DNA from: Eledone cirrhosa
Taxonomy: Eukaryota
Direction of reading: 5' to 3'
Assembly (NCBI GenBank): GCA_964016885.1
Contig: OZ024740.1
Coordinates: 330,026,001-330,090,000, forward strand
Length of the DNA stretch: 64,000 nucleotides
Part shown: one piece after another, positions 2,475 to 59,160 of the stretch
Position numbering within the stretch: position 1 is the first letter of the stretch
Layout of the letters: each line of letters begins with the position of its first letter
Translations under genes and position numbers: made by a program
The notes under the pieces: generated by a model
Database searches by the model: none
What the model was told of the DNA's origin: nothing
The model's input: only the letters and a program-made list of their open reading frames with translations

Positions 2475-2785
<311 letters not shown>

Positions 2786-5280
2786 ATTGGAATAAATGCT
2801 CTGAAATAGCGATATATATATGAATATAGACATAGAATATTCGAAAATATTCTGTATGTTTATAATAAACATTTTGAAGACCTAATCGCTATAGAATAGA
2901 ATACGTCACGTATTACAATTAGATTCTCGATAAAAGCAAGGGAAGTAATCTACGCGTTTCATTCTTGTTAGAATTCATCAGGACTACATATCCAGTGCTT
3001 TTATCGAGAATGACACAGCTAGAGACTTATAGAATACTTAGCTGTGTACAGGAACTGGTTTGAAAGAGCGGTTGCCGGTCCGGCAGAAATTAGAAATTGG
3101 AATAAATGCTCTGAAATAGCGATATATATATGAATATAGACATAGAATATTCGAAAATATTCTGTATGTTTATAATAAACATTTTGAAGACCTAATCGCT
3201 ATAGAATAGAATACGTCACGTATTACAATTAGATTCTCGATAAAAGCAAGGGAAGTAATCTACGCGTTTCATTCTTGTTAGAATTCATCAGGACTACATA
3301 TCCAGTGCTTTTATCGAGAATGACACAGCTAGAGACTTATAGAATACTTAGCTGTGTACAGGAACTGGTTTGAAAGAGCGGTTGCCGGTCCGGCAGAAAT
3401 TAGAAATTGGAATAAATGCTCTGAAATAGCGATATATATATGAATATAGACATAGAATATTCGAAAATATTCTGTATGTTTATAATAAACATTTTGAAGA
3501 CCTAATCGCTATAGAATAGAATACGTCACGTATTACAATTAGATTCTCGATAAAAGCAAGGGAAGTAATCTACGCGTTTCATTCTTGTTAGAATTCATCA
3601 GGACTACATATCCAGTGCTTTTATCGAGAATGACACAGCTAGAGACTTATAGAATACTTAGCTGTGTACAGGAACTGGTTTGAAAGAGCGGTTGCCGGTC
3701 CGGCAGAAATTAGAAATTGGAATAAATGCTCTGAAATAGCGATATATATATGAATATAGACATAGAATATTCGAAAATATTCTGTATGTTTATAATAAAC
3801 ATTTTGAAGACCTAATCGCTATAGAATAGAATACGTCACGTATTACAATTAGATTCTCGATAAAAGCAAGGGAAGTAATCTACGCGTTTCATTCTTGTTA
3901 GAATTCATCAGGACTACATATCCAGTGCTTTTATCGAGAATGACACAGCTAGAGACTTATAGAATACTTAGCTGTGTACAGGAACTGGTTTGAAAGAGCG
4001 GTTGCCGGTCCGGCAGAAATTAGAAATTGGAATAAATGCTCTGAAATAGCGATATATATATGAATATAGACATAGAATATTCGAAAATATTCTGTATGTT
4101 TATAATAAACATTTTGAAGACCTAATCGCTATAGAATAGAATACGTCACGTATTACAATTAGATTCTCGATAAAAGCAAGGGAAGTAATCTACGCGTTTC
4201 ATTCTTGTTAGAATTCATCAGGACTACATATCCAGTGCTTTTATCGAGAATGACACAGCTAGAGACTTATAGAATACTTAGCTGTGTACAGGAACTGGTT
4301 TGAAAGAGCGGTTGCCGGTCCGGCAGAAATTAGAAATTGGAATAAATGCTCTGAAATAGCGATATATATATGAATATAGACATAGAATATTCGAAAATAT
4401 TCTGTATGTTTATAATAAACATTTTGAAGACCTAATCGCTATAGAATAGAATACGTCACGTATTACAATTAGATTCTCGATAAAAGCAAGGGAAGTAATC
4501 TACGCGTTTCATTCTTGTTAGAATTCATCAGGACTACATATCCAGTGCTTTTATCGAGAATGACACAGCTAGAGACTTATAGAATACTTAGCTGTGTACA
4601 GGAACTGGTTTGAAAGAGCGGTTGCCGGTCCGGCAGAAATTAGAAATTGGAATAAATGCTCTGAAATAGCGATATATATATGAATATAGACATAGAATAT
4701 TCGAAAATATTCTGTATGTTTATAATAAACATTTTGAAGACCTAATCGCTATAGAATAGAATACGTCACGTATTACAATTAGATTCTCGATAAAAGCAAG
4801 GGAAGTAATCTACGCGTTTCATTCTTGTTAGAATTCATCAGGACTACATATCCAGTGCTTTTATCGAGAATGACACAGCTAGAGACTTATAGAATACTTA
4901 GCTGTGTACAGGAACTGGTTTGAAAGAGCGGTTGCCGGTCCGGCAGAAATTAGAAATTGGAATAAATGCTCTGAAATAGCGATATATATATGAATATAGA
5001 CATAGAATATTCGAAAATATTCTGTATGTTTATAATAAACATTTTGAAGACCTAATCGCTATAGAATAGAATACGTCACGTATTACAATTAGATTCTCGA
5101 TAAAAGCAAGGGAAGTAATCTACGCGTTTCATTCTTGTTAGAATTCATCAGGACTACATATCCAGTGCTTTTATCGAGAATGACACAGCTAGAGACTTAT
5201 AGAATACTTAGCTGTGTACAGGAACTGGTTTGAAAGAGCGGTTGCCGGTCCGGCAGAAATTAGAAATTGGAATAAATGCT
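2786..5280 (-). repeat. Left arm of 310-bp hammerhead tandem array (8 units; ribozyme on minus strand)
   Basis: aataaatgct recurs at 2791, 3101, 3411, 3721, 4031, 4341, 4651, 4961 and 5271. Confidence 0.97.
2945..2987 (-). ncRNA. Type I hammerhead ribozyme (first of 8 minus-strand copies, every 310 bp to 5115-5157)
   Basis: Reverse complement of GUAGUC-CUGAUGA-AUUCU-AACA-AGAAU-GAAA-CGCG-UA-GAUUAC. Confidence 0.9.
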
Positions 5281-8237
5281 GATGAATTCTAACAAGAATG
5301 AAACGCGTAGATTACTTCCCTTGCTTTTATCGAGAATCTAATTGTAATACGTGACGTATTCTATTCTATAGCGATTAGGTCTTCAAAATGTTTATTATAA
5401 ACATACAGAATATTTTCGAATATTCTATGTCTATATTCATATATATATCGCTATTTCAGAGCATTTATTCCAATTTCTAATTTCTGCCGGACCGGCAACC
5501 GCTCTTTCAAACCAGTTCCTGTACACAGCTAAGTATTCTATAAGTCTCTAGCTGTGTCATTCTCGATAAAAGCACTGGATATGTAGTCCTGATGAATTCT
5601 AACAAGAATGAAACGCGTAGATTACTTCCCTTGCTTTTATCGAGAATCTAATTGTAATACGTGACGTATTCTATTCTATAGCGATTAGGTCTTCAAAATG
5701 TTTATTATAAACATACAGAATATTTTCGAATATTCTATGTCTATATTCATATATATATCGCTATTTCAGAGCATTTATTCCAATTTCTTATTTCTGCCGG
5801 ACCGGCAACCGCTCTTTCAAACCAGTTCCTGTACACAGCTAAGTATTCTATAAGTCTCTAGCTGTGTCATTCTCGATAAAAGCACTGGATATGTAGTCCT
5901 GATGAATTCTAACAAGAATGAAACGCGTAGATTACTTCCCTTGCTTTTATCGAGAATCTAATTGTAATACGTGACGTATTCTATTCTATAGCGATTAGGT
6001 CTTCAAAATGTTTATTATAAACATACAGAATATTTTCGAATATTCTATGTCTATATTCATATATATATCGCTATTTCAGAGCATTTATTCCAATTTCTAA
6101 TTTCTGCCGGACCGGCAACCGCTCTTTCAAACCAGTTCCTGTACACAGCTAAGTATTCTATAAGTCTCTAGCTGTGTCATTCTCGATAAAAGCACTGGAT
6201 ATGTAGTCCTGATGAATTCTAACAAGAATGAAACGCGTAGATTACTTCCCTTGCTTTTATCGAGAATCTAATTGTAATACGTGACGTATTCTATTCTATA
6301 GCGATTAGGTCTTCAAAATGTTTATTATAAACATACAGAATATTTTCGAATATTCTATGTCTATATTCATATATATATCGCTATTTCAGAGCATTTATTC
6401 CAATTTCTAATTTCTGCCGGACCGGCAACCGCTCTTTCAAACCAGTTCCTGTACACAGCTAAGTATTCTATAAGTCTCTAGCTGTGTCATTCTCGATAAA
6501 AGCACTGGATATGTAGTCCTGATGAATTCTAACAAGAATGAAACGCGTAGATTACTTCCCTTGCTTTTATCGAGAATCTAATTGTAATACGTGACGTATT
6601 CTATTCTATAGCGATTAGGTCTTCAAAATGTTTATTATAAACATACAGAATATTTTCGAATATTCTATGTCTATATTCATATATATATCGCTATTTCAGA
6701 GCATTTATTCCAATTTCTAATTTCTGCCGGACCGGCAACCGCTCTTTCAAACCAGTTCCTGTACACAGCTAAGTATTCTATAAGTCTCTAGCTGTGTCAT
6801 TCTCGATAAAAGCACTGGATATGTAGTCCTGATGAATTCTAACAAGAATGAAACGCGTAGATTACTTCCCTTGCTTTTATCGAGAATCTAATTGTAATAC
6901 GTGACGTATTCTATTCTATAGCGATTAGGTCTTCAAAATGTTTATTATAAACATACAGAATATTTTCGAATATTCTATGTCTATATTCATATATATATCG
7001 CTATTTCAGAGCATTTATTCCAATTTCTAATTTCTGCCGGACCGGCAACCGCTCTTTCAAACCAGTTCCTGTACACAGCTAAGTATTCTATAAGTCTCTA
7101 GCTGTGTCATTCTCGATAAAAGCACTGGATATGTAGTCCTGATGAATTCTAACAAGAATGAAACGCGTAGATTACTTCCCTTGCTTTTATCGAGAATCTA
7201 ATTGTAATACGTGACGTATTCTATTCTATAGCGATTAGGTCTTCAAAATGTTTATTATAAACATACAGAATATTTTCGAATATTCTATGTCTATATTCAT
7301 ATATATATCGCTATTTCAGAGCATTTATTCCAATTTCTAATTTCTGCCGGACCGGCAACCGCTCTTTCAAACCAGTTCCTGTACACAGCTAAGTATTCTA
7401 TAAGTCTCTAGCTGTGTCATTCTCGATAAAAGCACTGGATATGTAGTCCTGATGAATTCTAACAAGAATGAAACGCGTAGATTACTTCCCTTGCTTTTAT
7501 CGAGAATCTAATTGTAATACGTGACGTATTCTATTCTATAGCGATTAGGTCTTCAAAATGTTTATTATAAACATACAGAATATTTTCGAATATTCTATGT
7601 CTATATTCATATATATATCGCTATTTCAGAGCATTTATTCCAATTTCTAATTTCTGCCGGACCGGCAACCGCTCTTTCAAACCAGTTCCTGTACACAGCT
7701 AAGTATTCTATAAGTCTCTAGCTGTGTCATTCTCGATAAAAGCACTGGATATGTAGTCCTGATGAATTCTAACAAGAATGAAACGCGTAGATTACTTCCC
7801 TTGCTTTTATCGAGAATCTAATTGTAATACGTGACGTATTCTATTCTATAGCGATTAGGTCTTCAAAATGTTTATTATAAACATACAGAATATTTTCGAA
7901 TATTCTATGTCTATATTCATATATATATCGCTATTTCAGAGCATTTATTCCAATTTCTAATTTCTGCCGGACCGGCAACCGCTCTTTCAAACCAGTTCCT
8001 GTACACAGCTAAGTATTCTATAAGTCTCTAGCTGTGTCATTCTCGATAAAAGCACTGGATATGTAGTCCTGATGAATTCTAACAAGAATGAAACGCGTAG
8101 ATTACTTCCCTTGCTTTTATCGAGAATCTAATTGTAATACGTGACGTATTCTATTCTATAGCGATTAGGTCTTCAAAATGTTTATTATAAACATACAGAA
8201 TATTTTCGAATATTCTACGTCTATATTCATATATATA
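5279..8237 (+). repeat. Right, inverted arm of 310-bp hammerhead tandem array (about 9.5 units)
   Basis: gatgaattct recurs at 5281, 5591, 5901, 6211, 6521, 6831, 7141, 7451, 7761 and 8071. The unit is the reverse complement of the left-arm unit. Confidence 0.97.
5583..5625 (+). ncRNA. Type I hammerhead ribozyme (first of 9 complete plus-strand copies, every 310 bp to 8063-8105)
   Basis: Helix I GUAGUC/GAUUAC, core CUGAUGA, helix II AUUCU/AGAAU, GAAA, palindromic helix III ACGCGU. Predicted GUA cleavage after 5619. Helix I is extended by a 16-bp stem (attctcgataaaagca/tgcttttatcgagaat) beyond an internal loop. Confidence 0.9.
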
Positions 8238-8260
8238 TATATATATATATAAATATATAA

Positions 8261-9044
<784 letters not shown>

Positions 9045-24158: not shown

Positions 24159-24187
<29 letters not shown>

Positions 24188-24189
<2 letters not shown>

Positions 24190-25118
24190 CGAATAATGAA
24201 AAGCGAAGTAGTTTCAGATGTTCAAGTCCTTTAATAATAATGCTGTGATATATATTTCAATGACGACACTGGCCACACTGTTCTGTGTGCGAGTGTCGTG
24301 TCATCATCAGACAGCTTGTTACATAATAAGGTTATGTTTCCGAGGCAATCCAATTTTTTTACTCACTTCAATCTATATTTTTACTCAATCCGAATTATCA
24401 CTTGAAACATTTTTGAATTTCGAATTTTTTAATTGTTTAATTTTTAATCTTTGATATTTGATTTAGGATTTTAATTTTTGATTTTTATTTCCAACTCTCA
24501 CTCTTAACTTCCAATGTAAAAACATGGTACCTAGAATTAAGTTTATTTTCCCTTATGAGATGATGGTCAGTCTTGCTGTCAACGCTTAGTGAAAGGTAGT
24601 ATTATGACCTATAAAAACTAACACCCTCCCATCCCCTCTGGCTTTCGGCTGACTGCTACAGTCGTGATGTATAGCAGTAAACTTTGGTAGGGCATAAGTG
24701 GGCCATTGTTTTGGCTGAGGGGATGAACTGACAGCGAATTTCGTTGAAATCTGCGGTGGCTAATGGTCAACTTCCTTTGGACATGCGCTTGCGCAGACCG
24801 GTGGGGGTGAATTGGTACTCACAAGGGAGCGGATGAAAAACCCAAAAGCACGAACTTCATCCGTTCCCATGTCGATTCAATTTGGATTGCCTCGGAAACA
24901 TAACCTTATTATGTAACAAGCTGTCTGATGATGACACGACACTCGCACACAGAACAGTGTGGCCAGTGTTGTCATTGAAATATATATCACAGCATTATTA
25001 TTAAAGGAATTGAACATCTGAAACTACTTCGCTTTTCCTTATTCGATATTTACTCCGTCACTCCTATGTGGAAAAAGTACGTTGAGTGCTTGAATTGAAT
25101 TGCATCAATGTTTACCCT

Positions 25119-25121: not shown

Positions 25122-25175
<54 letters not shown>

Positions 25176-25179
<4 letters not shown>

Positions 25180-26352
25180 TATTGGTCCTCTGAAATAGCG
25201 ATATATATATGAATATGTATATAGTGTATTTTGCAATACACTGTATTCTTAATTAAAAGCAGGTTCAAGACCATGCGCTATTGTTTTAAAGTAGCGACAT
25301 TGTCGCTTACATACATTGTCGGCAGGCAGGGGGAGATAAGATCACAGGCCTGTTTCGTACTAATTGGTACTTGTCAAAACTCAGTATTCTCCCGTCTGCT
25401 GAAAATTATAGAATTCCAGTAACGATCAGGAACTGATTTGCAGAGCTGTCGCCGGCCCAGAAGAAATTGAAAATTAGAATTGCTGCTCTGAAATAGCGAT
25501 ATATATATGAACGTGTATGTAGTGTATTTTGCAATACACTGTATGCTTAATTAAAAATATTTTCAAGTCCATACTCAATTGATTTAAATTAACGACATTG
25601 TCGCATGCTTACATTTTCGGCAGGCAGGGGGAGATAAGATGACAGCGCTGGTCTTGAAATTGCTTTTAATTAAGCATACAGTATATTGCAAAATACTCTC
25701 TATATACATTCATATATATATCGCTATTTCAGAGCAGCAATTCTAATTTTGAATTTCTGCTGGGCCGGCGACCGCTCTGTAAAATCTGTTCTTGATTGCT
25801 ACTGGAATTCTATAAGAATGCAAAACACATAATTTTAGGCAGACGGGGAGAGTACTGAGTTTCGACAAGTAACAATTAGTACGTAACAGCGCTGTCAACT
25901 TATCTCCCTCCTGCCTGCCAAACATTTAAGTAAGCGACAATGTCGCTACGATAAAAAAATAGCATAAGTTCTTCAAAATGCTTTTAATTAAGCATACAGT
26001 GTATTGCAAAATACACTATATGCACATTCATATATATATCGGTATTTCAGAGCAGCAATTCTAATTTTCAATTTCTGCTGGGCCGGCGACGGCTCTGTAA
26101 AATCAGTTCCTGATTGTTGCTGGAATTCTATAAGAATCAAACACACATAATTTTCGGCAGACGGGGAGAGTACTGAGCTTTGACAAGTACCAATTAGTAC
26201 GAAACAGCGCTGTCAACTTACCCCCCCCCCCCTCCTGCCGGCCGAAAATTTAAGTAAGTGACAATGTCAGTACTTTAAAACAATAGCGTATGGGCTTGAA
26301 AATTATTTTAATTAAGCATACAGTGTATTGCAAAATACACTATATATACATT

Positions 26353-26358
<6 letters not shown>
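25176..26358. repeat. Diverged inverted tandem array (about 300-325-bp units) related to the 310-bp family
   Basis: Shares ctctgaaatagcgatatatatatgaa and caggaactg..tttg..agagc.g..gccgg.cc..cagaaatt. Left arm 25176-25650, right arm 25651-26358. Confidence 0.9.
26174..26220 (+). ncRNA. Type I hammerhead with U3-A8 core (degenerate copies at about 25855-25901 plus and 25337-25383 minus)
   Basis: tgagct-TTGACAA-gtac-caatta-gtac-GAAA-cagcgctg-TC-aactta, with outer helix I ggcagacggggag/ctccccctgcctgcc. Confidence 0.75.
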
Positions 26359-26393
<35 letters not shown>

Positions 26394-31962: not shown

Positions 31963-33367
31963 TATATATATTAATTTCAACAATGTCAGTATTCTGTGTG
32001 TCAACATTCTCAATTATCATTGGTTCATAGGTTTCAAACAACTCTGCCCACCTCAATGACGCCAAACTTGAATTAATATGCATAATACCAATGAGGGAGT
32101 TAGAGGGGAGAGTAAGAAACAGAGAGACAAAGTGAACGCTCTGTTGGATACAGTATGTGTATGTGTCAGTGTAGAGACATGTGTGTGATATGTTTGGAAA
32201 TAAGAGGGGAAGAAAGCAATAACTATTAACACGTGTGCGTGTGTATGTACCTGCGCGTATGTTTATGTGTGTGTGTGCGTGCAGCGTTCCACAGAAAGTA
32301 AAAACTATCAACATGTGTGAGTGTGTGCGTGTGTGTAAGTGCACGGGTGCGTGTGTAAGTTTGCGTGCGTGTGCGCGTTTTCGTGCGTGTATGTGTGTGT
32401 ACGTGCGGCGTTCCACAATCGCCACGCAGTTTATCTGTCTGTGTGCCTGTCTGTCAGTCTAAGATAAACAGAGTTGTGAAGGGAGTAAATAAGGACCTTT
32501 TTTTACATTGACGGACATATTTAATATTTATTATAAGGGCGGTGGATTGGCAGTATCGGTAGAGGGTCGGACGCCATGCTTTGTATCACTGTTACGTCCC
32601 TTTACGGACTGATTTCAAATCCCGCCGAGGTTAACTTTGCATTTCTTCCTTACGGGGTCGATAAAATAAAGTACCAGTAACACACTGGGATAATTGCTGG
32701 CCTTGTGCCAAAAAGTAGAAACAATTATTGTGACATTTGTTGACAATTGCTCGCAATGAATACTGATAATAAAAGCAATTCGACTTTATCAAGCAGTGGA
32801 CTACGGCGGGGATGACGTGCAGCCAGGAGTGAAGAAAAACGGGCCGAACAGCGCCATCGGAACGCCGAACTTCAGAGGCGAAGACGTGCCGCTATATATG
32901 AAGAGGAGCTGGCGGAACAACGCCAACGAAACACTGGAGCCAAACAGCGACGGCGTGCTGTGATAGTTCAAGACGAATTGGTTGAGCATCATCTTTTATA
33001 TTAATTATCTATATCTATATCTACATATAATATAAAAGATTGGAACTTCCATCATCCTTTTGAGAAACGTGGAACAACCACGTCTATGCAATGATACACG
33101 TTTTACAGTCAGGCAGAAGATGAACCATCTCCTAGAGGTCACTATTCAAGGTGGGAGCATCTAGAATTGTTCATATACTATGCACAAACTGTACAACGAA
33201 GAATCTTGTATATCTGGAAGGTTTTTCTTACTGTTTTTGGCATCACACAGACACCACTCACTCGCCTCCTACTGTAACCAGACAAAACATCCAATACAGT
33301 AATTTTCTCTTTAACCTGTCTTCTCTTATCATCTGTTTACCCTGGCGAAACAGGGTACGTCAGCTAG
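31963..33367 (+). mobile_element. Non-autonomous, internally deleted Helitron
   Basis: 5' region is homologous to 33370 and 49600. It retains the charged N-terminal repeat coding (EEKRAEQRHRNAELQRRRR) and ends in hairpin accctggcgaaacagggt plus CTAG (33364-33367). Confidence 0.8.
32538..32730 (+). mobile_element. tRNA-derived SINE nested in the Helitron
   Basis: A-box-like tggcagtatcggt, B-box-like gatttcaaatccc, and the conserved ggggtcgataaaataaagtacc body. Confidence 0.85.
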
Positions 33368-33785
33368 TATCTATATATTAATTTCAACAATGTCATTAAT
33401 CCGTCTGTCATAATACTCGATTATCATTGGTTCATAGGTTTCAAACGACTCCGCCCATCTCAACTACGTTAAATTTAAATTAATATGCATAATGCGAATG
33501 AGGGAGTAACAGGGGATAGTGAGAAACAGAGAGGCAAAGTGAACGCTGTAACTATTACCATGTGTGCGTGTGTATGTACGTGCGCGTATGTTTACGTGTG
33601 TGTGCGTGCGTGCAGCGTTCCACAGAACGTAAAAGCAATACGACTTTATCAAACAGTGAACTACAGCGACGACGTCGTGCAGCCAGGAATGAAGAAAAAC
33701 AGGCCGAACAGCGCCATCGGAACGCCGAACTTCAGAGGCGATGATGTGCCGCACTGGCATCAGCAGATCGCCAGAATCCAGATGG

Positions 33786-36761
33786 CCACACAGCAAAGTG
33801 GGAGTAATTCCACTGGTGGCCACAGGGAGAGCAATCTTACTCTGAGCTCTGACTGCCGAACAACATAGTGTTGAAACAGAATGTCTTTCCGGTGCCTCCT
33901 GGAGCATCTATGAAAGCACAAAGTTGCTCATTAGTAGAAATCGAGTGGAGAACGCCATCAACCAATTCTCTCTGAGATTGGGTTAACATTGGCATACGTT
34001 CATCCACAATACGTTGCTGTTTCAGTCGAACAAAATGGAATAGTTCCATCCGATCGAGTGGCAACCGTCTAAGCTGCAATCTCATGTTCAATGCTAAGAC
34101 ACATTGCCGCATTTCTTCATCAGGAATTGGCAAACTGAAATCTGTTAAACATTTGAAATGAACTTCAAGCAATTGCTCAATATTGAGCAAAAAAATAGCT
34201 TTCATCAGATTTTCATCATCGACATGAAGATGATGCCAAAAGTCATCAGCCATAATTCCCCAATAGCGTTCAAATAACTCTCTTGGATCGGCAGGATTGG
34301 AGAACCCTAGAATCGTGACAAACAACTGTGTTATTTGAGCAGGCATCTCTGTTGTTCCTGCAGCTTCCATGGCGTTATTCCATTCAGCGTCATCCTGAAG
34401 GAGTCCCAGAGGCTGACACACAGCCTGGTATGTTTCACATTCCATGCCATTGATTGTTTTCAAATCAGCGAAGCTCAGTTTACCTATCGAAAAATCATTA
34501 TGCAACAGAATTCGGAGATAAAACACATCATCAGATGCTGGATGGACATTACAAACCAATCCAATAGTCATGAATCTCAAATTTTGTTTTCTATCATTCC
34601 ATTTCTTTCCCTTCTTATCCCACGTATAGTGGGAAGGGAAATCGCAGCAGAGCTGCCTTTGATCCGGGTTCAAAGCATCTTCCCTATTATTCTTGAACCA
34701 CTCAGTCAATTCCGTCTTAGGAGGTGGTGCGTTAGCAATTCTTTCGACACCTCTTCTAGTGTCTTTAAAACAGACCAATTGCCTATTCTCTAAGTGAACC
34801 GTCAGTTTCTGAACGCTGGGTTTGCGTTTATTGAGATCAAAATCGAACAATCCCCAGCAAGCTTCGCTAGATCCAATCGAGCGAACATCCTGGAACCTGG
34901 CAACTTCATCTCCTTGGTTCGCTTCCTTATTCCTGATCATTGACCGGTCATGACCTTTGTAAACATATTTGAATAGAAATCTACAAGCCTTCACTGAGCT
35001 ACAAATTTCCACATTAATATGACAACGACATTTCATAATCAAACATGGATTGATTGGCAAACCCAATGATTTGTAATCTGTCGACCGTTTACATTTTCGA
35101 CCAAACCGCCATCTGCAGGCGACCGTCTTCTGTATGAGGGATGAACATCCCCATCGTTCCAGGAAGTGTTCGTGAGAAAAGATTTCGGAAAGTGCTTACT
35201 GCATTGGCCATTTTTCATGCAAGGCGCTCTCCGATTTACCACTCCGCATTGGTTGTGCACCATTGACTTTACCACAAAGTTGCGTAGTGCCTCATTCTCC
35301 GGCAGTTCAGCACACATAATTCTGTCGTCATCCTCAGCACATTTCAATTTGAAATCTCTATGTAAAATGATCAGCAAATGTGCATGTGGCAATCCTCTTT
35401 TTTTGAATTCAATTACGTATGTAAAAGCAACTATACCTCCAAAGATTCCCTCTTTTTCCACATCATCCATTATCTTTTTCAGATATCATTTGAATACTCT
35501 TGCCACAATATCAGGACGGTCCTTTGGCTGTCGTCCTGGCAAAAGTGCATCCTTAATATCAGTCCATTCAGGATTGCATGTAACCGTTATAAACAAATCT
35601 GGGTTTCCAAACTTTCTGACAATAGCCATTGTATCCTGATAGCGAATGTTCATATATCTCGGGCCACCGATGAACGACGACGATGGCAAAATGATGCGTC
35701 GACCAATTTGATTGTAATTGGCATCATCGGCTGTTATCGCATCCTGTATATTATTATACAATACAGCTCTGATGTGTTGCTGATCTGTAGCTATATAATT
35801 CAGCCTTTGATTTTCGATCTTTGCGAAAGCCATACAACAGTATTCCTGGAACAATCTGCTGGCTTTAAATAGCGCATTTCTCTGTGTCTATTGTCTCTAT
35901 TGCCACCTACCTGTTGATGCTGATTCTCATGATCATCTAAATGAACAAACATGTTCCATCCATTTTCACCTTTTGGGAATAAAATAACATAATGCAATGG
36001 ATTGCATGCCCTATTTGACTCATTGATAGTCTTGAGACCAATCATCTCTGCGATTGAGGAAGATATCTCTCGATCCAGGCTTATCGTCCATCAATACAGC
36101 AACTTCACGAAATCCTTCAGCGGCATTATATCGCCGTTCGTGTTGATTCCTTGGCACTGCGTCAGCCTTAATCACCAATGTTTGCGGCTGAACATTTTGC
36201 TGTTCAGCCACTAACATGAAATCCATAACATAAGGATTACACTGTCTAAACCATGATTGCAAATGACTGATCAAATCACTTAACCTTTGCCGTTCAAGTT
36301 CAGTTATATTTCCCGTCAATTTCATCCAACCGATCCTGATATCCTCCTCCGATTCACTATAATCTGGATCGTTAACGTAACTTTGAGCGAATCGCGGCCT
36401 CTCTCCTGGGGTAACTTCTAAATTACCGATACAATGATACAAACGGCCTTGAATGACTACATTCGGTTGCCATGCTCCACTCTCAAACATCTCACTAACG
36501 CTCTGCGATTCTAAAACTAATGAATTGTTAATTTGCAGCGAATATTTGCGCACTAATCTAGCTCGGTCTCCTTGATCACCCCACATACTTAGTATTTTAA
36601 ACTCTGGTGACTCCTCAACATCCGGCATTCGCAAGGGTTCTAGTTAAACTGCTCCTTTATGACAGCACATTGTGGTCCACGTCTTTTCGTGCCTCCAAAG
36701 CAATGATCCACAATGTGGACACTCTGCTCGTCCACCAATCTGAAAATGACACGGTTGCCAT
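33786..36761 (-). pseudogene. Helitron RepHel: Zn finger, HUH Rep and helicase motif I (inverted segment)
   Basis: CPHCG..CCHKG, FITVTCNPEW, YVIEFKKRGLPHAHLLI, FLFKYVYKGHDR and DAPGGTGKTF, split by frameshifts. Confidence 0.92.
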
Positions 36762-37715
36762 TCGGTGGTAAGACTATCGTTCTTGGTGTCGATTTCAGAC
36801 AGGTGTTACCAATTGTTAGGAATTCTCAAAGAGCGCAAATTGTTGATGCATGTCTGAAAAAGTCCCCGTTGTTGCGCCATTTCAGAGTTTTGCGATTACA
36901 CGGTAATATGCGACTTCGTATGTTCGGGCAAAACGAAGAGGTTGATGCAGTTAGGAAAGGATTAATTGCCACACGTTGGTTATAATCAGACTGTAAGAAT
37001 CCCAGACCATTTGGTCATGCCAGTGGACCGCCAAGCATTGATTGGCAAGGTGTTCCCTAATTTGAATGCTTTTTGGCAGAATATCTCCAGGATATCGGAA
37101 CGCGTTATTCTAACTCATACGAATGCAACGGTCGATGATATAAATTCACAAGTAACCGGAATGTTTCCTGGAGAGGAATGGTTGACTGTCAGTGTGGATG
37201 CAATGGAGCCTAATCAGCAGAACAATATGGATGTTCCGACTGAGTATCTGAATTCACTTCAAATACCCGGATTTCTCCCACATATTTTGAGGTTGAAAAA
37301 GGTTATGCCGATTATATTGCTAAGAGATATCAATAGTAAAATGGCTCTTTACAATGGTACCAGATTGATTGTTGAGAGATTCATTAACGGAAGAGTTTTA
37401 GAAGCTAAACTTCCAGGCAGAGACGAATCAGTTCTCATTGCGAGGATCATGCTGAGACCAAGTGAAGATTTACTGCCATTCATTTGGCAAAGGAGACATT
37501 TTCCCGTCAATTTGTCCTTCTCCATGATTGTCAACAAGGCACAGGGACAGACTTTCAAGCAGGTCCGTGTCTACTCGAATGATCTAGCATTCAACCATGG
37601 GCAACTGTATGTTGCTGCATTTCGAGTGTGCGATCCTGATGGTATAAAATTTGCAATTGATACCACTAACAGAGGAACAACCCTGAATATTGTCTATAAT
37701 GAAGCTTTGAGCTGA
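36759..37715 (+). pseudogene. Helitron PIF1-like helicase, C-terminal part
   Basis: [36 protein letters not shown] and HGQLYVAAFRV. Confidence 0.92.
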
Positions 37716-38948
37716 TGTCTGCATATCTTTAATGCTATCAATAAGCGACGTAAATGATTCCCACATTGGTGTCCCTTGATAAGTATTGTGAACTTTGACA
37801 GAGTTACCATTTATGTTCAATGTCATTTAATGTCGTTATTAGCAATACAAACAAACAAGTATTGGTAAAAATTGCTTTCACTGCTATGTTGCGCAATAAA
37901 TACCAACAAGTATTGGTAGAAATTGCCTTCACTGCTATGGATATTTGACGTAAATGAATCAGACATTGGTGTCCTTTGATCATTATTGTGAGCTTTGACA
38001 GAGTTATTTTTTCTGTTCAATGTCGTTTATTATCAATAATGAGCAATAAAAACCAACAAGTATTGGTAGAAATTGCCTTAAAATGTATCGCTTCTGATAG
38101 CGGTGGTAATATAACCTCATCATATGCTCAGTGTGGCAAAAGCTTTGGTGCCTATGGCCGGCCAGGGCTAGAGTAATATTGAAAAACGATTCTATTTTCG
38201 AAGTAGAAGGATCCGCCATTTGGAGTTCAAACCAGGCCACCTCCCCGAGTTTAACTCTGGGCTATAGTGACTGTCTATTACTCAGTGGTTAAGAGCCTGA
38301 ACATTACTGAATACATTTTTGTGTCATATAATTTGTTGTTTTATTATTATAGCTCACACTCATAGATAAGCATATTATCCATATCCATATTAATTTGGCA
38401 TTTGTATAAACCATTCCAAGTAAATATGGACCTTTTTTACATTGACGACATATTTTATATTAATTATCTATATCTATATCTACATATATTATAAAAGATT
38501 GAAACATCCATCATCCTATTGAGAAACGTGGAACAACCACGTCTATGCAATGAGACACGTTTTACAGTCAGGCAGAAGATGAACCATCTCCTAGAGGTCA
38601 TTTTCTCTTTTACCTGTCTTCTCCTATCATCTGTTTATCAGGGCGAAGCTGGGTACATCAGCTGGTAACAATAATGTTAATATAATTATAAAAACAAATT
38701 CTTTATAAGCCTATAGGGCCGAGAGATGTAATTGTCATAACACAAGAAGAAGACAAAAGAGTTTTATCATTACCGTATCGGTCATAGACCTCTCCGCTGT
38801 TTGTCAATGCTGTTTACAATACGACTTCTAAGGTTACCGAGGTTAATTTGCCTTTCATACCGTAGGGTGTCAAAAAGAGAAAGGAAATTATAAGAGTCGT
38901 TTCTTTATCTATCGCCTTTAACTATCTCTTTAATCCTTGTATCTCACC

Positions 38949-39016
<68 letters not shown>

Positions 39017-42000
39017 CACTCGGTCACTCGGTTCTTGTGCACTCACCCTGAAAATGATAGAATGATACGTTAGATGCGCCTGGGTGGTTCCCTTGTTTCT
39101 GAAAGGGGATGGTTAGTTCTTGACTTAATGAAATACATCACAAAGAACTCTGAAGAGGCAATCACTCACTAAAACAGATAATCATGATAATATTAAATCT
39201 TAGAACTAGTCAAGACATTGGTGAAGTAAACGAATCGTGAAAGTACCAGGCAAAGTTATGTCTACACCCAGTCATGTCTACTTCCTGAGATGCCATCTGA
39301 AGTGAGGAAAGGTAATAACACATGTGCTAATTAAGTATAGTGGTGGAGTTCCTAATGCAGAAGACTATCTAATCCTGATTAGCTCTAGGGCTGGTGGAAA
39401 GTGAATATGTTGTATACTAGTCTGGGCTAACAGAATGCATTTTAATACAACACGCAATATCACCCGTGTCTACTACTTTCTTCAAGATCAAATCAATTTC
39501 TAATGATTTTCATCTGAAATATTTTTACACCTGCTACAATATCACGCCAAATATGTTTTTGCAACAGCGTATTCTTTTATTTAATATTAATGGAAGATGT
39601 ATGTTGTTGAATCAGAAATGTTTGTATTAATCAAATACAATCTAAAGCATGAAAATTAAATTTTGAACGCAGTCTCGCTGAATGATAAAGGCGATTTTGC
39701 TTTCTATTATATTATCTCAACATTCGCCTTTTAATTGATGTCGTAATTCAATTTGAAGCTAAATGAAATCATTATTCATCAAATAAACGTACAACAAGCT
39801 CGTATTCATTTTTTTATTAATTTATTTATAGTATGTGCATTACGAAATTTATTCTAGTTACGCAAAAACTAATTTTATAAATAATTTTCCTGTTGTATTC
39901 CGTTAAAGCACATGAAACATTGAATATTAACGTAGTATTTCACATTTTAACATGTACGTCTACTTAGGGTCAATAAAGGGGTTAACGAATCAGTTACAAA
40001 CATAGATTGAAATGTAATGCATTTTACATACATAATTATTATAAACTGATGTATTGCAACAATGTTTAACATAACAGAACGGTGACTTTCCTTCTAGATG
40101 TTTCTTTAAATTTCCTTTTAACCCAGACAAACTTCGGGGAACATAAAATGTTTCGCTTCGCAGTAAGCATGGTGAAAGGAAATTGTTGAAAAGGGAACGT
40201 ACATGCATTTTACTATAAAAGGTATGCATTTTACACAAAAATATATGTATATTGGGTATTTCTTTATTTAGGGTAGTGTAACACACTATCCTAAATTTAA
40301 TACTGGCTTGTATGTGATGTCTAAAATAATTTAAGTATTTTGGAAGCACTTCAAATATATACATTTTTATTTTTACATATTTTTGAAGTATAATGTTATT
40401 ATATCCATGGTGCAACTAGCCGTATATTTGGGCACACTTCTCGGCCCATACTTACTATCTCTGAAAATGCAGTGTAACCTATAACTTGATCTATTTTCTT
40501 ACGATTAAAACTCGTACAATATATTTTGATTATTATTCCAGCTCCGAATAAAAGAAAAATTGAAATGTTAAAGGAAATATACCAAGATTCAATGAAATGC
40601 ATGGACATTCCTCAAAGATAATTATATCAAAGCTGAATGGGTTAGTAAACACAGCAATATATTATAGTATTTTCTCTGAAACCTTAAAATCACACACTTC
40701 ATTTCTATAGATATAACATTGATATAGAGGTTTAACGCAGTTAATTACAAATTACTACCTCATCAGTTTATAGTTTGAATCACACATCAATAGTGGATCA
40801 TTCTGCATCGCCACAATCGACATCTTATCGCTTTATATTTCTATCACGATGTGGAATGAAACATGCATATTTGAGCAGCTGTTACTTGCGCATAACTGCT
40901 TCAAATTTCTATTATCTATTCTGTTACATGCGAGACGACAACAGCTGCTTCAGTATATTTGGCAGATATGTAATCCTCTATAATAACTTATGTGTTGAAA
41001 CATAAGTTTAAAAGAAAAAAAAAACCGTCTATTTTATTTGCAGTAATGTAGATTTTGAAGAGTAGTTAATGCGTAGAAAACAGCATAATAATTAAAATAT
41101 ATTTATAATTTATCTTGTGGGATGAAATGTTGAAATTGGACAAATGGTTTGATGTATGAGCAAAGTGTATGGGGCAGATTTATTGCATCTCATGGTTTAT
41201 TATAACACTCTTATCTTTTGGATACATTAGGTGAAGTACAATATGTTGCAAATCTGCAGATCTGGGATTTTGTCATATATCATATTCTTTGTAGACGCAA
41301 TTGTCAATTAATGATACTTTTCCATTTCTTTCTGCTAAAATTTGTGCTCTCTTCTCAACTTCATATAGTGATTGTGCGGCGTACCTATGACCGTTAAAAG
41401 AGGATATGTAATGGGAGAGTTCTTGTTTTGTTTATTATACATCCTAAATCTATTCTATGAAAGATTTCTACGTATCTCAGGAAGTTTGTATAGAGTTTGT
41501 GGCTCGTGGTTTATTTAGGAATTGCTCGCATCTCATAGTATATCAAACACTATCGGTTCCTGAGGGAATTATGTTTTTCATTTGTTGAAGAATCTCATTT
41601 TGATTTTGTTATTTGTTATATATATTAAAGACAAATAGCCATATTTGCCTGAAAGTTTTAAAATTTATATAAAAGTTATTTTCAGTATTATCAAGCCCGT
41701 TATTCTTTAAGGATTAAAACTAGAAAACATTTTAAGCAAATGATTTTCTGCTTTATCTTGAAATGAGCAGTAACACAACAATATATGAAAATATTATAAT
41801 GAATCCATTAGCAGCATGAAATAGTCTAATCTACCGTTTAGCTCTAACTATTACTTATCTGCAAACGAAGATAAGTGATATATAACCAATTTCTGAATCA
41901 ATGACCTCAAAACCACAAATTCTCCGAGCACTGCACACAAGTACTATAATAATCTATCACATTAGCCATAATTTATCTATAACCAGCGAAGCGAGTATAT

Positions 42001-42229
42001 AAAAATTTAAAACAAATATAATAACCAAAATGTATTTAACATTAGTAATATTAATACCAATAAATGTCTAATTATGACACCATATTATGGATTAACATGC
42101 GATATTATAATAACTAGGGGAAAAGCCGCCCTCGTGCGGTTTTCTGCTAGCATATGTAGTGTGGATATTGGGATTATACACAAAGATATATGCATATAGA
42201 TATATGTGAATTGAAAAGTAAATTGACAA

Positions 42230-42905
42230 TATCTTCTTCTTCATCCACTTATTTCTGAGAGGGTTGTGGATGCAGATTCCTTCTCAAACACTCCGTCCAG
42301 CCAGTTTGTTAGTAGCAAACATCTCTAACTGATCCAGCTGGATCCCAAAGCGTGACCAGCCAAGCTCATGGATGTTATCCAAACATCTAGCTCAGGGTCT
42401 ACCTCTGGGTCTCTTGCCGGTTGGTTTTACCTGTAAAATGTGTACAGCGATTCTTTACTGACACATTCTAACCAGTTGCTCATAATATAAGAGTTGTGAT
42501 CTCTCAATTCGGAGAATTAGCGGCTCTACATAGGAGTGACTCACTGCTCTCGTAGTTATGCACTTTATCGAGTAACATTACTCCAACGACGCTTCGGAGG
42601 AATCCCATTTCTGCCACTTTTATTTGCAATTGTATTCTTCTGGTCATTACTCAAGATTCATGATCCTCGCTAAGAGTTGTCAGGAATACCAGGAAGACAG
42701 TGAGTTTGGCTTTTACACCTACCCCCGTTCATCTGATTGATGAATGCTGATGCTGGCGCATTACTGCATCAGGTTTTGCAATTCTTGCACTTAATTCAGC
42801 CGCCTGCATTCCATCACTCATGAAAACGGCTCCAAGATACTTGAACTTCTCTAACTTCTTCAGTAGAACTCCATTCACATGTATATAAATTTGAGGGACT
42901 TCTGC
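42230..42905 (-). mobile_element. RTE-like LINE 3' fragment
   Basis: VNGVLLKKLEKFKYLGAVFMSDG..ELSARIAK, and downstream GKRPRGRP; (GAA)-like tail. Confidence 0.75.
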
Positions 42906-43114
42906 CACTCGCCCATCACGCAATGTGTATGTATGTTTGTGTGAATGTATGTGTGTGTAAAAGTAAGAAAAGGGATACACACATATATATGTCTAACTTA
43001 AAAACCGTGACACACACACACACGTGTCTCTAATTTCAGAACGCCGACAAACCTACGCGCGCGCACATACACACACTTTCCTATTACCACTCAGGAACTT
43101 TGTCCGGAGCAAAC

Positions 43115-43520
43115 ATCCCCTCAAACATCCCCTCAATTTTGGAACCGTCTGCGTTGTCCTGAATTGATGGGAAAAGACTCGACGGTCTTACTCTGTGCTC
43201 CTGGTCAAGAGGCAGGTGCCTTATTTGGGACGTCACAGTTAGTGACTCTTTTGCTTCTTTCCACATTCTGGATGCAGCTGAACGGAGCAAAATCCTAAAA
43301 TATCGTGTTCTCTCAGCTAACTACATTATCCAGCCCGTGGCGTTCGAGACGTTTGGGGGAGTCGGCTACTGACAGCGAGGTTCTTATCTTCACTGGCGGC
43401 TCGCCAAACAGAGGTAACTGGGGATGCTCATGGGGGCACTCTGTTGTTCCAGCACCTCAGCCTCGATATCAGCCCTGGTAACGCTGCGAGCGTGCAGGCT
43501 TGTCTCAAAAATTATTAGAG
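43115..43520 (+). pseudogene. Restriction-like endonuclease fragment of a CRE-like non-LTR retrotransposon
   Basis: ILEPSALS*IDGKRLDGLTLCSWSRGRCLIWDVTVSDSFA..KILKY..YIIQPVAFETFG..GNAASV. Confidence 0.75.
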
Positions 43521-43728
43521 AGGTTTCCCAGTGCTCCTCGCTATATTGGTTTCTTTTTCTCTGGTAGCGGCTCGTTTGCCTACTGTTTCGCGCGCATTTT
43601 ATTCTATGAGGTATAAGATGTGTGTATTACCTGCTTGTGTATTTTTTTCTCTTTCATTTTTTTCCTTTCCCTTTCCTTTGTATATATTATACTTGTTAGT
43701 GTTTTCGTTATGCAACCTTTATATTAAA

Positions 43729-46700
43729 CTAGCTGACGTACCCAGCTTCGCCCGGGTAAACAGATGATAAGAGAAGACAGGTAAAAGAGAAACTGACTGT
43801 ATTGGATGTCTGTCTGATTACAGTATGAGGCGAGTCCGTGGTGTCTGTGTGATACCAAAAACAGTAAAAACATCTTCCACATATACAATATTCTTCGTTG
43901 TACCGTTTGTGCATAGTATATGAATAATTCTAGATGCTCCCACCTAGAATATTGACCTCTAGGAGATGGTTCATCTTCTGCCTGACTGTAAAACGTGTAT
44001 CATTGCATAGACGTGGTTGTTCCACGTTTCTCAAAAGGATGCTGGAAGTTCCAATATTTTCTATTATATGTAGATATAGATATAGATAATTAATATAAAA
44101 GATGTCCGTCAATGTAAAAAAGGTCCCTATTTACTTGAAACGGTTTATACAAATGCGAAATTAATATGGATATGGATAGCATGCTTATCTATAAGTGGTC
44201 AGCTATAATAATAAAACAACAAATTATATGACACACAAAATTATTCAGTAATTTCCAATCAGTATTGCCAAAATTAAACTCGGGGAGGTGGCCTGGTTAG
44301 AACTCCAAATGGCGGATCCTTCTACTTCGAAAATAGAATCGTTTTTCAATATTACTCTAGCCTTGGCCGGCCATAGGCACCAAAGCTTTTTCCAGACTCA
44401 GCAGATGATGATGTTTTATTACCGCCGCTATCAGAAGCGATACATTTGAAGGCAATTTCTACCAATACTTGTTGGTTTTTATTGCTCATTATCGACAATA
44501 AAAGACATTGAACAGATTTGGTAACTCTGTCAAAGCTCACAATACTGATCAAAGGACACCAATGTCTGAATCATTTACGTCGAATATTCATAGCAGTGAA
44601 GGCAATGTCTACCAATACTTATTGTATCTATTGCGCAACATAGCTGTGAAAGCAAGTTTTTACCAATACTTGTTTGGGTTTATTGTTCATAACGACATTA
44701 AATGACATTGAACATGAATGATAACTCTGTCAAAGTTCACAATACTGATCAAAGGACACCAATGTGGGAATCATTTACGTCGCTTATTGATAGCATTAAA
44801 GATATGCAGACATCAGCTCAAAGCTTCATTATAGACAATATTCAGTGTTGTTCTTCTGTTAGTGGTATCAATTGCAAATGTTATACCATCAGGATCGCAC
44901 ACTCGAAATGCAGCAACATACAGGTGCCCATGGTTGAATGCTGGATCATTCAAGTAGACACGGCTTCGCTTGAAAGTCTGTCCCTGTGCCTTGTTGACAG
45001 TCAAGGAGAAGGTCAGATCGACGGGAAAATGTCTCCTTTGCCAAATGAATGGCAGCAGATCTTCACTTGGTCTCAGCATGATCCTCTCAATGAGAACCGA
45101 TTCCTCTCTGCCTGGGAGTTTAGCTTCTAAAACTCTTCCCCTCATCAATCTCTCAACATTAAATCTGGTACCATTGCAAATATCCATATTATGATTGATT
45201 TTTCTAAGCAATATAATCGGCATACCCTTTTTCAACCTCAAAATATGTGGGGAAAATCCGGGTATTTGAAGTGAATTCAGATACTCAGTCGGAACATCCA
45301 TATTGTTCTGCTGATTAGGCTTCATTGAATCCGCAATGACGGTCGACCATGCCTCTCCAGGAAACATTCCAGATACTTGTGAATTTATTTCATCGAACGT
45401 TGCATACGTATGAGTTAGAATAACGCGTTCCGATATCCAGGAGATATTCTGCCAAAAAGCATTCAAATTAGGGAACACCCAGTCAATCAATGCTTGGCGG
45501 TCCAGTGGCATGACCAAATGGTCTGGGATTCTTACAGTCTGATTATCACCAACGTGTGGCAATTCATCGTTTCCCAACTGCATCAACTATCAGCCGTATA
45601 TCTCAGTCTCTACGTTTTGCCCGAACATACGAAGTCGCATATTATCGTGTAATAGCAAAACTCTGAATTGGCGCCACAACGGAGACTTTTTCAGACAAGT
45701 ATCGAAAATTTGCGCTCTTTCAGCATTCCTAACAATTGGTAGCACCTGTCTGAAATCGCCACCAAGTACGATAGTCTTACCACCGAATGACAGATCACTA
45801 CCGCAGATATCTCTCAAAGTTCTGTCCAATACCTCCCGCAAATATATGTGTGCCATTGGAGCCTCATCCCAAACAATACGAGACGTATTGCGTATAAGGT
45901 CCGCGATTTCACTTTGTCCTGTAATGTTACAGACACTCAACTCATCCGGAGCCAATGGAGGCTTGAAGCATGAGTGGAAGGTCCTTCCACCACTCAGCAA
46001 AGTGGTAGTGATCCCACTGGTGGCCACAGGGAGAGCAATCTTCCTCTGAGCTCTGACTGCCGATAACATAGTGTTGAAACAGAATGTCTTTGCGGTGCCT
46101 CCTGGAGCATCTACGGAAGCACAAAGTTGCTCATTAGTGGAAATCGAGTGGAGAACGCCATCGACCAATCTCTCTGAGATTGGGACAACATTGGCATACG
46201 TTCCTCCACAATACGTAGCTGTTTCAGTTGATCAAACTGGAATAGTTCCATCCGATCGAGTGGCAACCGTCTAAGCTGCAATCTCATGTTCAATGCTAAG
46301 AGACGTTGCCGCACTTCTTCATCAGGAATTGGCAAATTGAAATATGTTAAACATTTGAAATGAACTTCAAGCAGTTGCTCAATATTGAGCAAAACAATAG
46401 CTTTCATCAAATTTTCTTCATCGACCTGAAAGTGATGCCTAAAATCATCAGCCATAATTCCCCAATGGCGTTTAAATAACTCTCTTGGATCGGCAGGATT
46501 GCAGAACCCTAGAATCGTGACAAACAACTGCCTTATTTGCGCTGGCATCTGTGTTGTTCCTGCAGCTTCCATGGCGTTCTTCCATTCAGCGTCATCCTGA
46601 AGGAGTCCCAGATGCTTACACACAGCCTGGTATGTTCCATATTCCACGCCATTGATTGTTTTCAAATCAGCGAAGCTCAGTTTACCTATCGAAAAATCAT

Positions 46701-58949: not shown

Positions 58950-59160
58950 TAGATAATGAAAATAGGGCCTCTGTTGTATTATTGACTAAGTAAATGGTCC
59001 TAATATTTTGGAGTTATAAAAACCCACAGAAATAAAAAAAGGAATGAGCATTGACGTACATGAGACACGAACCCACATCTCTGGCTACCATTCTATTGTG
59101 TTACCATTACACCAATACGCCACTCACACCTTTTTCATTAAATTTGAAGCTATATAATTA
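58950..59160 (-). mobile_element. tRNA-headed repeat (family of 60457-60925)
   Basis: Homologous to 60480-60680. Confidence 0.7.

Follow-up and report, generated by a model that had tools for sequence, protein, structure and literature searches.

Head-to-head arrays of a 310-bp hammerhead repeat in (TA)n tracts of Eledone cirrhosa share the insertion geometry of Penelope-like elements

The inverted array described here, which lies in a 64,000-nt stretch of the Eledone cirrhosa genome (contig OZ024740.1; hereafter the window), belongs to a set of at least about 1,500 insertions of a hammerhead repeat without coding capacity. Chance does not explain its head-to-head arrangement in (TA)n, which was found again at 74 of 84 distinct ends traced in chromosome order and which is the already known insertion geometry of Penelope-like elements (PLEs), a precedent that the preliminary description left unnamed. 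We consider one-step twin priming by a PLE-type enzyme very probable as the origin of these arrays, and we favor, with less assurance, the joint reading in which a monomer circle is also the usual template.

Repeat detection in the window gave a period of 310 in both arms (Table 1). In RNA sense, the left arm begins at unit position 182 and ends at 196, abutting (TA)n at window position 2786, where CCAAT is followed by ATAT; the right arm runs from unit position 1 to 170, with the unit's internal AT tract passing into (TA)n at 8238, and carries two single changes (5789 A>T and 8218 T>C). The preliminary description had both 3′ ends pointing outward into (TA)n in ribozyme sense and the arms meeting through a 2-nt CT overlap, and both observations are confirmed, the overlap being exact. 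It had also placed the joint at the first bases of CUGAUGA: the right arm does start there, but the 5′ end of the left arm does not. That position is attributable to chance, as one of 210 inner arm ends, the window's own, falls at positions 1–2 with 1.4 expected, and we dropped any meaning for it. No stop-to-stop frame of at least 120 aa was found inside 2882–8438. Lacking an ORF, the array is not an autonomous PLE with an RT and GIY-YIG ORF; being non-coding and without an LTR, it conforms to the animal non-LTR retrozymes. Beyond the right (TA)n remnant lies a second small head-to-head element (~8261–8456), and the window also holds a 135-aa PLE fragment, for which a Pfam search returned zero matches.

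Table 1. Positions of array features and of the sister-family locus
Feature	Position	Strand	Basis
Left (TA)n target tract	2476..2785		TRF array 2476–2787 and sequence
Tail-type (left) arm	2786..5280	-	8.05 units, zero mismatches to unit
CT microhomology, 2 nt, joining both arms	5279..5280		Arm alignments
Short-type (right) arm	5279..8238	+	9.55 units
Minimal type I hammerhead, one example of every full unit's	5869..5957	+	Rfam HH9 match and listed pairs
Priming module (unit 154–203), one example	6052..6101	+	End mapping and sister-family conservation
Right (TA)n target remnant	8239..8259		Sequence and repeat detection
Older sister family (locus L076)	25175..26363		Sequence comparison

The 310-bp unit has a GC content of 0.33–0.35, within the 150–450 bp and low GC of retrozymes, and its sequence suggests a hammerhead retrozyme-like repeat for which self-cleavage and circular RNA are predicted. 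Each unit has a type I hammerhead whose core (5899–5929 in the example unit) and helices occur on one strand only; helix I has 5 bp, helix II has 4 bp, and helix III consists of one pair with a palindromic tetraloop, next to a flanking helix of 16 bp. From the hammerhead consensus, the cut is predicted after 5929 (unit 31/32). The Rfam HH9 match at 5884–5949 reached 23 bits (E 0.00055), under the gathering score of 52, and a scan of the window at gathering level returned zero ribozymes. The catalytic core is free of all 43 whole-array variants. The priming module, which combines the AT tract of the short arm with the 194–203 window of the tail arm, is conserved with an older sister family.

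Across the genome, we counted at least 1,464 insertion ends and at least 15,268 units, which together occupy at least 4.7 Mb. Single-armed insertions account for 10 of the 84 traced ends, and (TA)n flanks were present at nearly all loci. Arms have a median length of 3.7 units (range 1–45), the longest reaching ~45 units or 14 kb. The proposed geometry of head-to-head arms in (TA)n thus holds family-wide (74/84 ends), and the other loci, with their head-to-head arms, (TA)n flanks, and recurrent outer ends, are not plain unidirectional arrays with random flanks; on this refuting condition, set by the preliminary description, the outcome favors its reading. The sister family has a 318-bp unit that is 76–79% identical to the 310-bp unit over unit positions 90–243, and at L076 it likewise forms head-to-head arms within (TA)n, which end at the counterparts of 196 and 170. 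In contigs from an independent public run, loose TA ends follow unit position 170 (10 contigs) or 201 (1 contig). Unit matches occur in public runs under 17 organism codes, with one near-identical unit contig each in two of the three examined, for which relatives, diet, contamination, or transfer are possible sources.

The outer ends fall into two classes, a short end at ~170 and a tail end at 194–203, the tail being the 24–33 nt beyond 170 that are found in one arm only. In a pairing scan of 100 short and 75 tail ends (C1, 0–186 Mb), all 50 outward pairs within 20 kb combined a short with a tail end (p = 9e-16 against a 50:50 mix). Our follow-up of unpaired ends, which left out 15 of the 50 unpaired short ends and the 25 unpaired tail ends, identified 24 further two-armed loci among 34 unpaired short ends, with a tail-type partner in 24 of 24; none of the 50 pattern-paired and 24 further loci had two short ends. 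This pairing, seen also at 8 of 9 loci of the older sister family, leaves the preliminary description's idea of two equivalent primers unsupported. The asymmetric second end is a Penelope-like "tail", which we count as such (30–40 bp at a single end) with its length slightly under the textbook range. Other features of the PLE machinery are present as well, namely a head-to-head 5′-truncated arm (74/84) and an AT-rich or (TA)n target with a target site duplication (TSD); direct duplications of 10–14 bp were found in 7 loci with informative flanks and are unreadable in pure (TA)n, the window included. Of 107 arms with C at position 162 of their inner units, 76 carry T there in the terminal unit, which we take as evidence of target-derived letters in the short end. 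We rejected a dominant tail end at 200 (23 genome-wide matches versus 1,071 for 196) and a clustering of stops and of A>T changes at unit positions 200–203 (3 of 144 unbiased inner ends at 199–205), which had appeared in the first 39 loci because the search query bore a rare T201 unit that selected such loci. Inheritance of the tail end from the donor's junction is disfavored because the rare 200-type end was found on many haplotypes.

Inner ends, by contrast with these fixed positions, are uniformly spread round the unit (KS p 0.16). If the templates were linear monomers, stops at the hammerhead cut would be expected, but such ends were not enriched (4 of 210 inner ends versus 3.4 expected), and termination there was rejected. 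At 76 direct joints, the arms overlapped by a mean of 2.2 nt against 0.76 under the null (0 of 20,000 simulations), an excess that supports the suggested central joining by microhomology. Joint scoring tolerated single mismatches, and a few of the 29 joints scored as "inserts" (e.g., L005 and L007) are alignment artefacts.

Haplotypes and variants bear on how the units were copied; the counts that follow, like those of joints, omit L049 (gap), L050 and L052 (error-rich small contigs), L202 (duplicate of L156 across a gap), L196 (overlapping a second locus), L138 (diverged single arm), and L226 (second piece of L225). Two different uniform arms were found at 0 of 71 testable loci, while cross-locus arm pairs matched in 567 of 4,970 cases (11%), which supports multi-round copying of one template sequence. 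We detected 36 uniform haplotypes among 97 loci, with rare ones in arms of 10–27 units. In ~1,100 units there were 166 single-unit changes versus 23 variants common to a subset of units, and changes acquired after insertion are few. Whole-array variants, read in ribozyme sense, comprise 15 A>G versus 3 T>C, against 6 versus 21 among single changes (Fisher p 7e-5). The A>G variants repeat at stem positions 51, 290, and 307 on 3–4 backgrounds and never occur there as a single change, and the pair is retained in 9 of 10 helix-located whole-array variants; the bias could instead reflect selection for G-U wobble pairs, without editing. Given one haplotype per locus, mostly single-unit changes, and the whole-array A>G bias, the arrays look as if they were inserted ready-made through monomer RNA. 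The idea first put forward, insertion in a single step with both strands of a (TA)n target as primers, is in turn supported by the head-to-head form, the (TA)n flanks, the joints, and the single haplotype. Three loci depart from this picture: at L162, L174, and L216, a variant occupies the matching outer unit or units of the two arms and is absent further in, a pattern that is impossible from a single monomer circle and that fits a longer template in register, a template switch, or fold-back. These loci point to longer templates.

In the mechanism that we propose, arrays would be transcribed, cut by the hammerhead, and circularized. A PLE protein, probably a dimer, would cut the target in stagger to leave 3′ overhangs of ~10–14 nt; one overhang would anneal to the AU tract at 154–170, overwriting template mismatches, while the other would begin 24–33 nt to the 3′ side and pair little, if at all. 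Both RTs would then go round the template a varying number of times, after which the two cDNA 3′ ends would be joined by microhomology-mediated repair and filled in. The enzyme would be a Penelope-like RT/GIY-YIG protein with two fixed internal start sites and probably a circular monomer RNA as template. In its most specific version, which we offer tentatively and regard as somewhat likelier to be wrong than right, a PLE dimer would sit on one 310-nt circle with both starts 24–33 nt apart, primed from the two strands of the staggered cut, and would make up to 45 turns; with one RNA circle shared by both RTs, even A-to-I edits of that single molecule would enter every unit and be fixed in all of them. 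Counting against the proposed mechanism are the single-armed insertions (10/84), the sub-threshold Rfam match, the three in-register loci, the block-duplicated variants of some long arms, the use of uncut RNA in vitro without need of the hammerhead (PMC11167929), and the lack of similarity between the unit and the one autonomous PLE family compared.

The in-register variants at L162, L174, and L216 favor a different template for PLE twin priming, a long uncut linear transcript of the donor array with both primers in the same unit, the circle being at most an occasional bottleneck. Uncut RNA was also the dominant substrate in vitro (PMC11167929), and a minimal hammerhead may cleave poorly as a monomer (PMC7229834, in the portion considered here). 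We nonetheless regard a linear template as unlikely, because linear copying can neither lengthen arrays nor spread a new variant through every unit, and still there are 36 uniform haplotypes among 97 loci, the rare ones filling arms of 10–27 units. Moreover, the three in-register loci stand against 89 single changes for which the same-register cell of the opposite arm is unchanged, where our rough expectation of in-register sharing from donors of average load is ~20; none of the three variants is A>G, and one arm extends for ~45 units. Self-priming by fold-back, proposed for PLEs (PMC3846280), would have the second arm copied as DNA from the first and resolved at the opposite end of the target, and would thereby yield head-to-head arms of one haplotype; the lengths of the two arms do correlate (rho 0.34–0.38), and the tail arm is at least as long as the short arm at all three in-register loci. 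A copy cannot exceed its template in length. Of 105 loci, however, 48 have the longer arm on the short-type side and the rest have it on the tail side, with roles fixed. Nor are the inner ends mirrored (mean circular distance from mirror 71.5 versus ~77.5 at random; 11 of 105 within 10 nt of the mirror position, 7 expected), and in vitro it is RNA that templates extension of both strands (PMC11167929), all of which renders fold-back improbable.

Later growth has been suggested for vertebrate retrozymes (bioRxiv 10.64898/2026.07.22.740005, Discussion), and here it would mean short PLE-type insertions of 1–2 units per arm enlarged into satellites by unequal exchange or slippage. Block-duplicated variants in the long arms of L036, L151, L152, L220, and L225 indicate that some local amplification occurs; periodic shared variants mark the longest arms (these five and L197), and a complete PLE insertion is tandemly repeated at L101/L102. 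As the main route, later growth is very unlikely: single-unit changes far outnumber subset-shared ones, arrays of 12–18 units already exist with none or two changes (L032 and the window), change density is independent of array length (rho −0.07, n = 78), and in old long arrays most units diverge by 6–18% without homogenization. Perfect palindromes are a familiar long-read artefact, and the window is known from the assembly alone, so palindromic chimeric reads, or else later inversion of a plain satellite, were also considered. We find this hardly credible, given arms of unequal length with different fixed ends, flanks that differ and carry target duplications, haplotypes specific to each locus, the same form in old copies of 80–90% identity and in a coding PLE, and the loose TA ends at 170 and 201 in contigs of the independent run. 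Twin priming by a PLE-type enzyme remains our preferred reading.

The PLE transposition cycle and the origin of retrozyme arrays are both described as open questions (PMC8557442; PMC11167929; bioRxiv 10.64898/2026.07.22.740005). The very young insertions of this one short unit, some 1,500 in number, provide a natural experiment on both: they assign each of the two known RT start sites to one target strand, give the cut stagger, speak against a chief role for fold-back or local amplification, and carry a signature that connects a hammerhead retrozyme with PLE machinery. If the circle is true, circular RNA would be copied into kilobase palindromic satellites by single events, which would offer a route to new satellite DNA and fragile palindromes as well as a defined 310-nt substrate for in vitro work.

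Animal non-LTR retrozymes, as PMC7229834 and bioRxiv 10.64898/2026.07.22.740005 present them, are non-coding tandem units of 150–450 bp with ~34% GC and a type I hammerhead per unit, found alongside PLEs; rolling-circle copying of their circRNA by PLE RT is proposed there, and circRNA expression is demonstrated. The 310-bp array shares their unit size, low GC, hammerhead per unit, non-coding nature, and co-occurrence with PLEs. Retrozymes are described there as plain tandem repeats, whereas the Eledone arrays are head-to-head, and local amplification is suggested in the 2026 preprint (bioRxiv 10.64898/2026.07.22.740005), whereas the present arrays seem ready-made. The term "head-to-head" was absent from the retrozyme literature searched, as were inverted forms, microsatellite targets, and tails from the passages searched in PMC7229834 and bioRxiv 10.64898/2026.07.22.740005. 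Within that coverage, we found no earlier description of head-to-head retrozyme insertions, the geometry itself being known for PLEs.

In LINE-1 twin priming, both target strands prime cDNA and leave an inverted arm, a TSD, and a microhomology joint; this is a minority outcome, primed at the 3′ poly(A) and a variable internal site. The arrays resemble LINE-1 in all four of these features and differ in that the two-armed form is the rule (74/84), the two priming sites have fixed internal positions, and both arms traverse the same sequence many times. Their ends are internal unit positions without poly(A), unlike L1-type priming.

Closest are the EN+ PLEs, which have a head-to-head inverted 5′-truncated copy, a 30–40-bp tail at one end, an 8–10-bp TSD, and (TA)n or AT-rich targets (PMC3846280, PMC8557442, PMC11167929). 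Within the Eledone genome, an abundant RT+GIY-YIG PLE has the short and tail pairing in 9 of 9 two-armed loci with a 33-nt tail, and L096, of a family other than that of the arrays, carries a 784-aa ORF with RT and GIY-YIG endonuclease. The one autonomous PLE family compared, pLTR included, showed no sequence similarity to the 310-bp unit, nor did it yield a hammerhead core with a hammerhead-like end after it. The arrays share with EN+ PLEs the inverted arm, the one-sided tail, the TSD, the (TA)n or AT-rich target, and two internal RT starts; they differ in having no ORF, in a tail of 24–33 nt rather than 30–40 bp, and in arms of 1–45 identical short units rather than partial tandems of a long element. 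As a biochemical precedent, a PLE protein cleaves both strands in vitro and extends them from two internal sites that bound the tail, using uncut RNA with the hammerhead dispensable and with no strand difference in start site seen (PMC11167929), whereas the genomic arrays assign one start site to each target strand.

We conclude that the array of 310-bp units in the window is a non-autonomous hammerhead retrozyme, very likely inserted by twin priming of the Penelope-like element (PLE) type at two unequal sites. Arm coordinates confirmed the layout given in the preliminary description: both arms point outward in ribozyme sense, share a CT overlap and run into (TA)n on both flanks. No open reading frame was found inside the array. 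The hammerhead core lies on one strand only of the unit, numbered here in ribozyme sense from the start of CUGAUGA, with helix I of 5 bp, helix II of 4 bp and helix III of one pair with a palindromic tetraloop, accompanied by a further 16-bp helix. Against the Rfam model HH9 the unit scored 23 bits (E 0.00055), short of the curated cut-off of 52.

Coordinates of the repeat arms and related features in the window
Feature	Position	Strand	Description
Left arm	2786-5280	minus	8.05 units of the 310-bp unit, 0 mismatches; outer end at unit 196, inner end at 182
Right arm	5279-8238	plus	9.55 units of the 310-bp unit, two single changes; outer end at unit 170, inner end at 1
Older sister family copy	25175-26363		318-bp unit
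GIY-YIG-region fragment of a very abundant PLE family	62-472	minus	Family has 13,186 candidates, many with an intact 784-aa RT+EN frame

Exact-pattern searches of the 3.0-Gb genome returned at least 1,464 short ends (outer 3' ends near unit 170), at least 1,071 tail ends at unit 196 and 23 at unit 200, and at least 15,268 inner units; these are lower bounds, and reversed-pattern controls gave 0 matches. Because our initial 39 loci were skewed by the query toward the rare 200-type end, a second sample was drawn in chromosome order, with pairing scored among 100 short and 75 tail ends, the first met along one assembly sequence, C1. All 50 outward pairs within 20 kb joined a short to a tail end. 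Of the 50 short ends left without a partner, 35 were retrieved, and one of these proved to duplicate another locus across a gap; 24 of the remaining 34 were two-armed with a tail-type partner (one tail arm being only ~12 nt), and 10 were single-armed. Tail ends ranged over unit 194-203, with 50 of 75 exactly at 196. The recurrence sought at other loci in the preliminary description was thus borne out, with 74 of 84 insertions head-to-head and ends recurring at ~170 and 194-203, but its two equivalent primers were not: among the 84 chromosome-order loci, every two-armed one pairs a short with a tail end, and none carries two short ends.

The same priming module is common to the older 318-bp family (~3,092 candidates; seen in the window copy and loci L076-L095), whose two ends are equivalent to those of the young family at 8 of the 9 two-armed loci where both could be seen. 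Alignment with the unit revealed no intact hammerhead core in the window copy. In the short arm's terminal unit, position 162 is T in 76 of 107 arms whose inner units have C, and target letters extend to unit 153-160 in some short arms, which indicates that the target strand overlay the AU tract, mismatches included. At the tail end, pairing with the target is slight or absent (L036, L145). Direct target duplications of 10-14 bp were found in seven loci with non-TA marks near both joints (L033, L036, L038, L053, L056, L145 and L204; L038 and L145 scored by eye) and, together with the strand continuing into each arm, would mean that the target cut left 3' overhangs. The window's own duplication is unreadable in its (TA)n.

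Direct joints make up 76 of the 105 central ones, their overlaps averaging 2.2 nt versus 0.76 in random pairs. The 29 scored as inserts range from one letter up to additional pieces of the unit, and two of them hold foreign sequence captured between the arms (55 nt in L030, 272 nt in L197). The proposed tie between the CT joint and CUGAUGA did not hold, since inner ends show an even distribution around the unit, with 1 of 210 at CUGAUGA and 4 of 210 near the predicted hammerhead cut. Fold-back, in which the second arm is copied from the first by self-priming, is disfavoured because either arm can be longer (the short-type arm in 48 of 105 loci), arm lengths correlate only weakly (rho 0.34-0.38) and the two inner ends do not lie at mirror positions in the 105 joints.

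The template was examined in 123 loci with ~1,100 inner units, leaving out L049, L050, L052, L138, L196, L202 and L226. Arrays are nearly uniform, with 166 single-unit changes (0.05%) versus 23 subset-shared variants, and this excess of single changes says that arrays would have been born near full length. It also argues against local amplification as the main route, although block duplications in some long arms show that it does occur. We found 36 haplotypes among 97 fully covered loci; where both arms were testable, 66 of 71 loci matched outright, four differed by one single change or joint misalignment only, and one (L174) changed haplotype two units in, in both arms alike. Arm pairs drawn across loci were identical in 11%, and rare variants were present in both arms at 22 loci. 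The main rival to copying from a monomer is an uncut multimer RNA with the same twin priming. In L162, L174 and L216, variants occur only in matching outer units of the two arms, suggesting that the two primers began within one and the same unit of a single molecule, and that this molecule was longer than a monomer or else both arms switched template together; this speaks against a pure monomer circle. A new variant filling every unit must have passed through a monomer and then been multiplied, the only route by which it could do so. We regard rolling-circle reverse transcription of one monomer RNA as most likely; it would yield multi-unit arms in a twin-primed insertion. Twin priming in (TA)n with multi-round copying, as first proposed, is upheld by the recurrent form and single haplotype, equivalent primers excepted.

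Whole-array variants show ribozyme-sense A>G in 15 cases versus T>C in 3, against 6 versus 21 in single changes (p 7e-5). In the helices the A>G change is found repeatedly, on more than one background, and leaves pairing intact as G-U. The bias marks an RNA step, through either structural selection or A-to-I editing. The opposite bias of single-unit changes (p 0.012, all loci) is suggestive only, and may reflect reverse transcriptase misincorporating G opposite U.

We also observed several other elements. At 8261-8456, in the same (TA)n tract, lies a second small non-coding head-to-head element with 63-bp palindrome arms and a one-sided extension, near-identical at L096 and beside L037 and related beside L007; it looks like a PLE-type insertion of a different family. 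A further head-to-head element in (TA)n, also abundant and non-coding (L096:7430-8297, L109, L125, L128, L129), has a hammerhead core and helix II nearly as in the 310-bp unit, with other sequence unrelated, and adds to a set of 29,433 matches. The inverted repeat at 24183-25052 (174-nt arms, 97%, around 522 nt) adjoins a (TA)n run and is either MITE-like or another inverted insertion. Decayed, oppositely oriented frames at ~33,000-49,600 were recognised by eye as resembling Helitron Rep/helicase, and a weak tRNA-like Rfam match at 59052-59121 (minus, 31.4 bits) is probably a SINE head or pseudogene. In 20 public sequencing runs (X1-X20; 17 organism codes, 16 studies), 58-88% of sampled words of the 310-bp unit were present, with one near-identical single-unit contig each in X4 and X5; relatives, diet, contamination or horizontal transfer could each account for this.

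The two-armed form of the 310-bp family is the PLE geometry. A PLE that is abundant in the same genome, where many of its 784-aa RT+GIY-YIG frames are intact, has two-armed insertions that in 9 of 9 cases combine a full end with one lacking 33 nt. It is only a candidate partner, because no sequence similarity was found between it and the unit. The label Neptune-like for this PLE rests on an endonuclease at the C terminus with a cysteine motif upstream of it, features described in PMC8557442. In full copies (L098, L103), an extra frame (327-455 aa) lies upstream and overlaps the RT-frame start. At L101 and L102 (C2:359513000-359537999), half of a head-to-head PLE insertion including the central joint is tandemly repeated with a ~3.9-kb period, either because the segment was amplified later or as an effect of the assembly.

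In the main texts consulted, mostly outside subscription journals, we did not find the combination of retrozyme and PLE geometry, the one-site-per-strand rule or the haplotype evidence; supplements such as Fig. S9 of PMC7229834 and Fig. S2 of PMC11167929 may hold related models or examples. PLE pLTRs are described as head-to-head, one of them bearing a 31-bp tail, with TSDs (target duplications) of 8-10 bp and self-priming proposed (PMC3846280), and the PLE cycle is termed undefined (PMC8557442). A PLE protein cuts and extends both strands from two internal sites bounding the tail, with no strand difference observed and hammerhead cleavage not needed (PMC11167929). The element class is known from retrozymes (PMC7229834 and bioRxiv 10.64898/2026.07.22.740005), and the insertion geometry is known from PLEs, which share the one-ended tail and (TA)n targets (PMC8557442).
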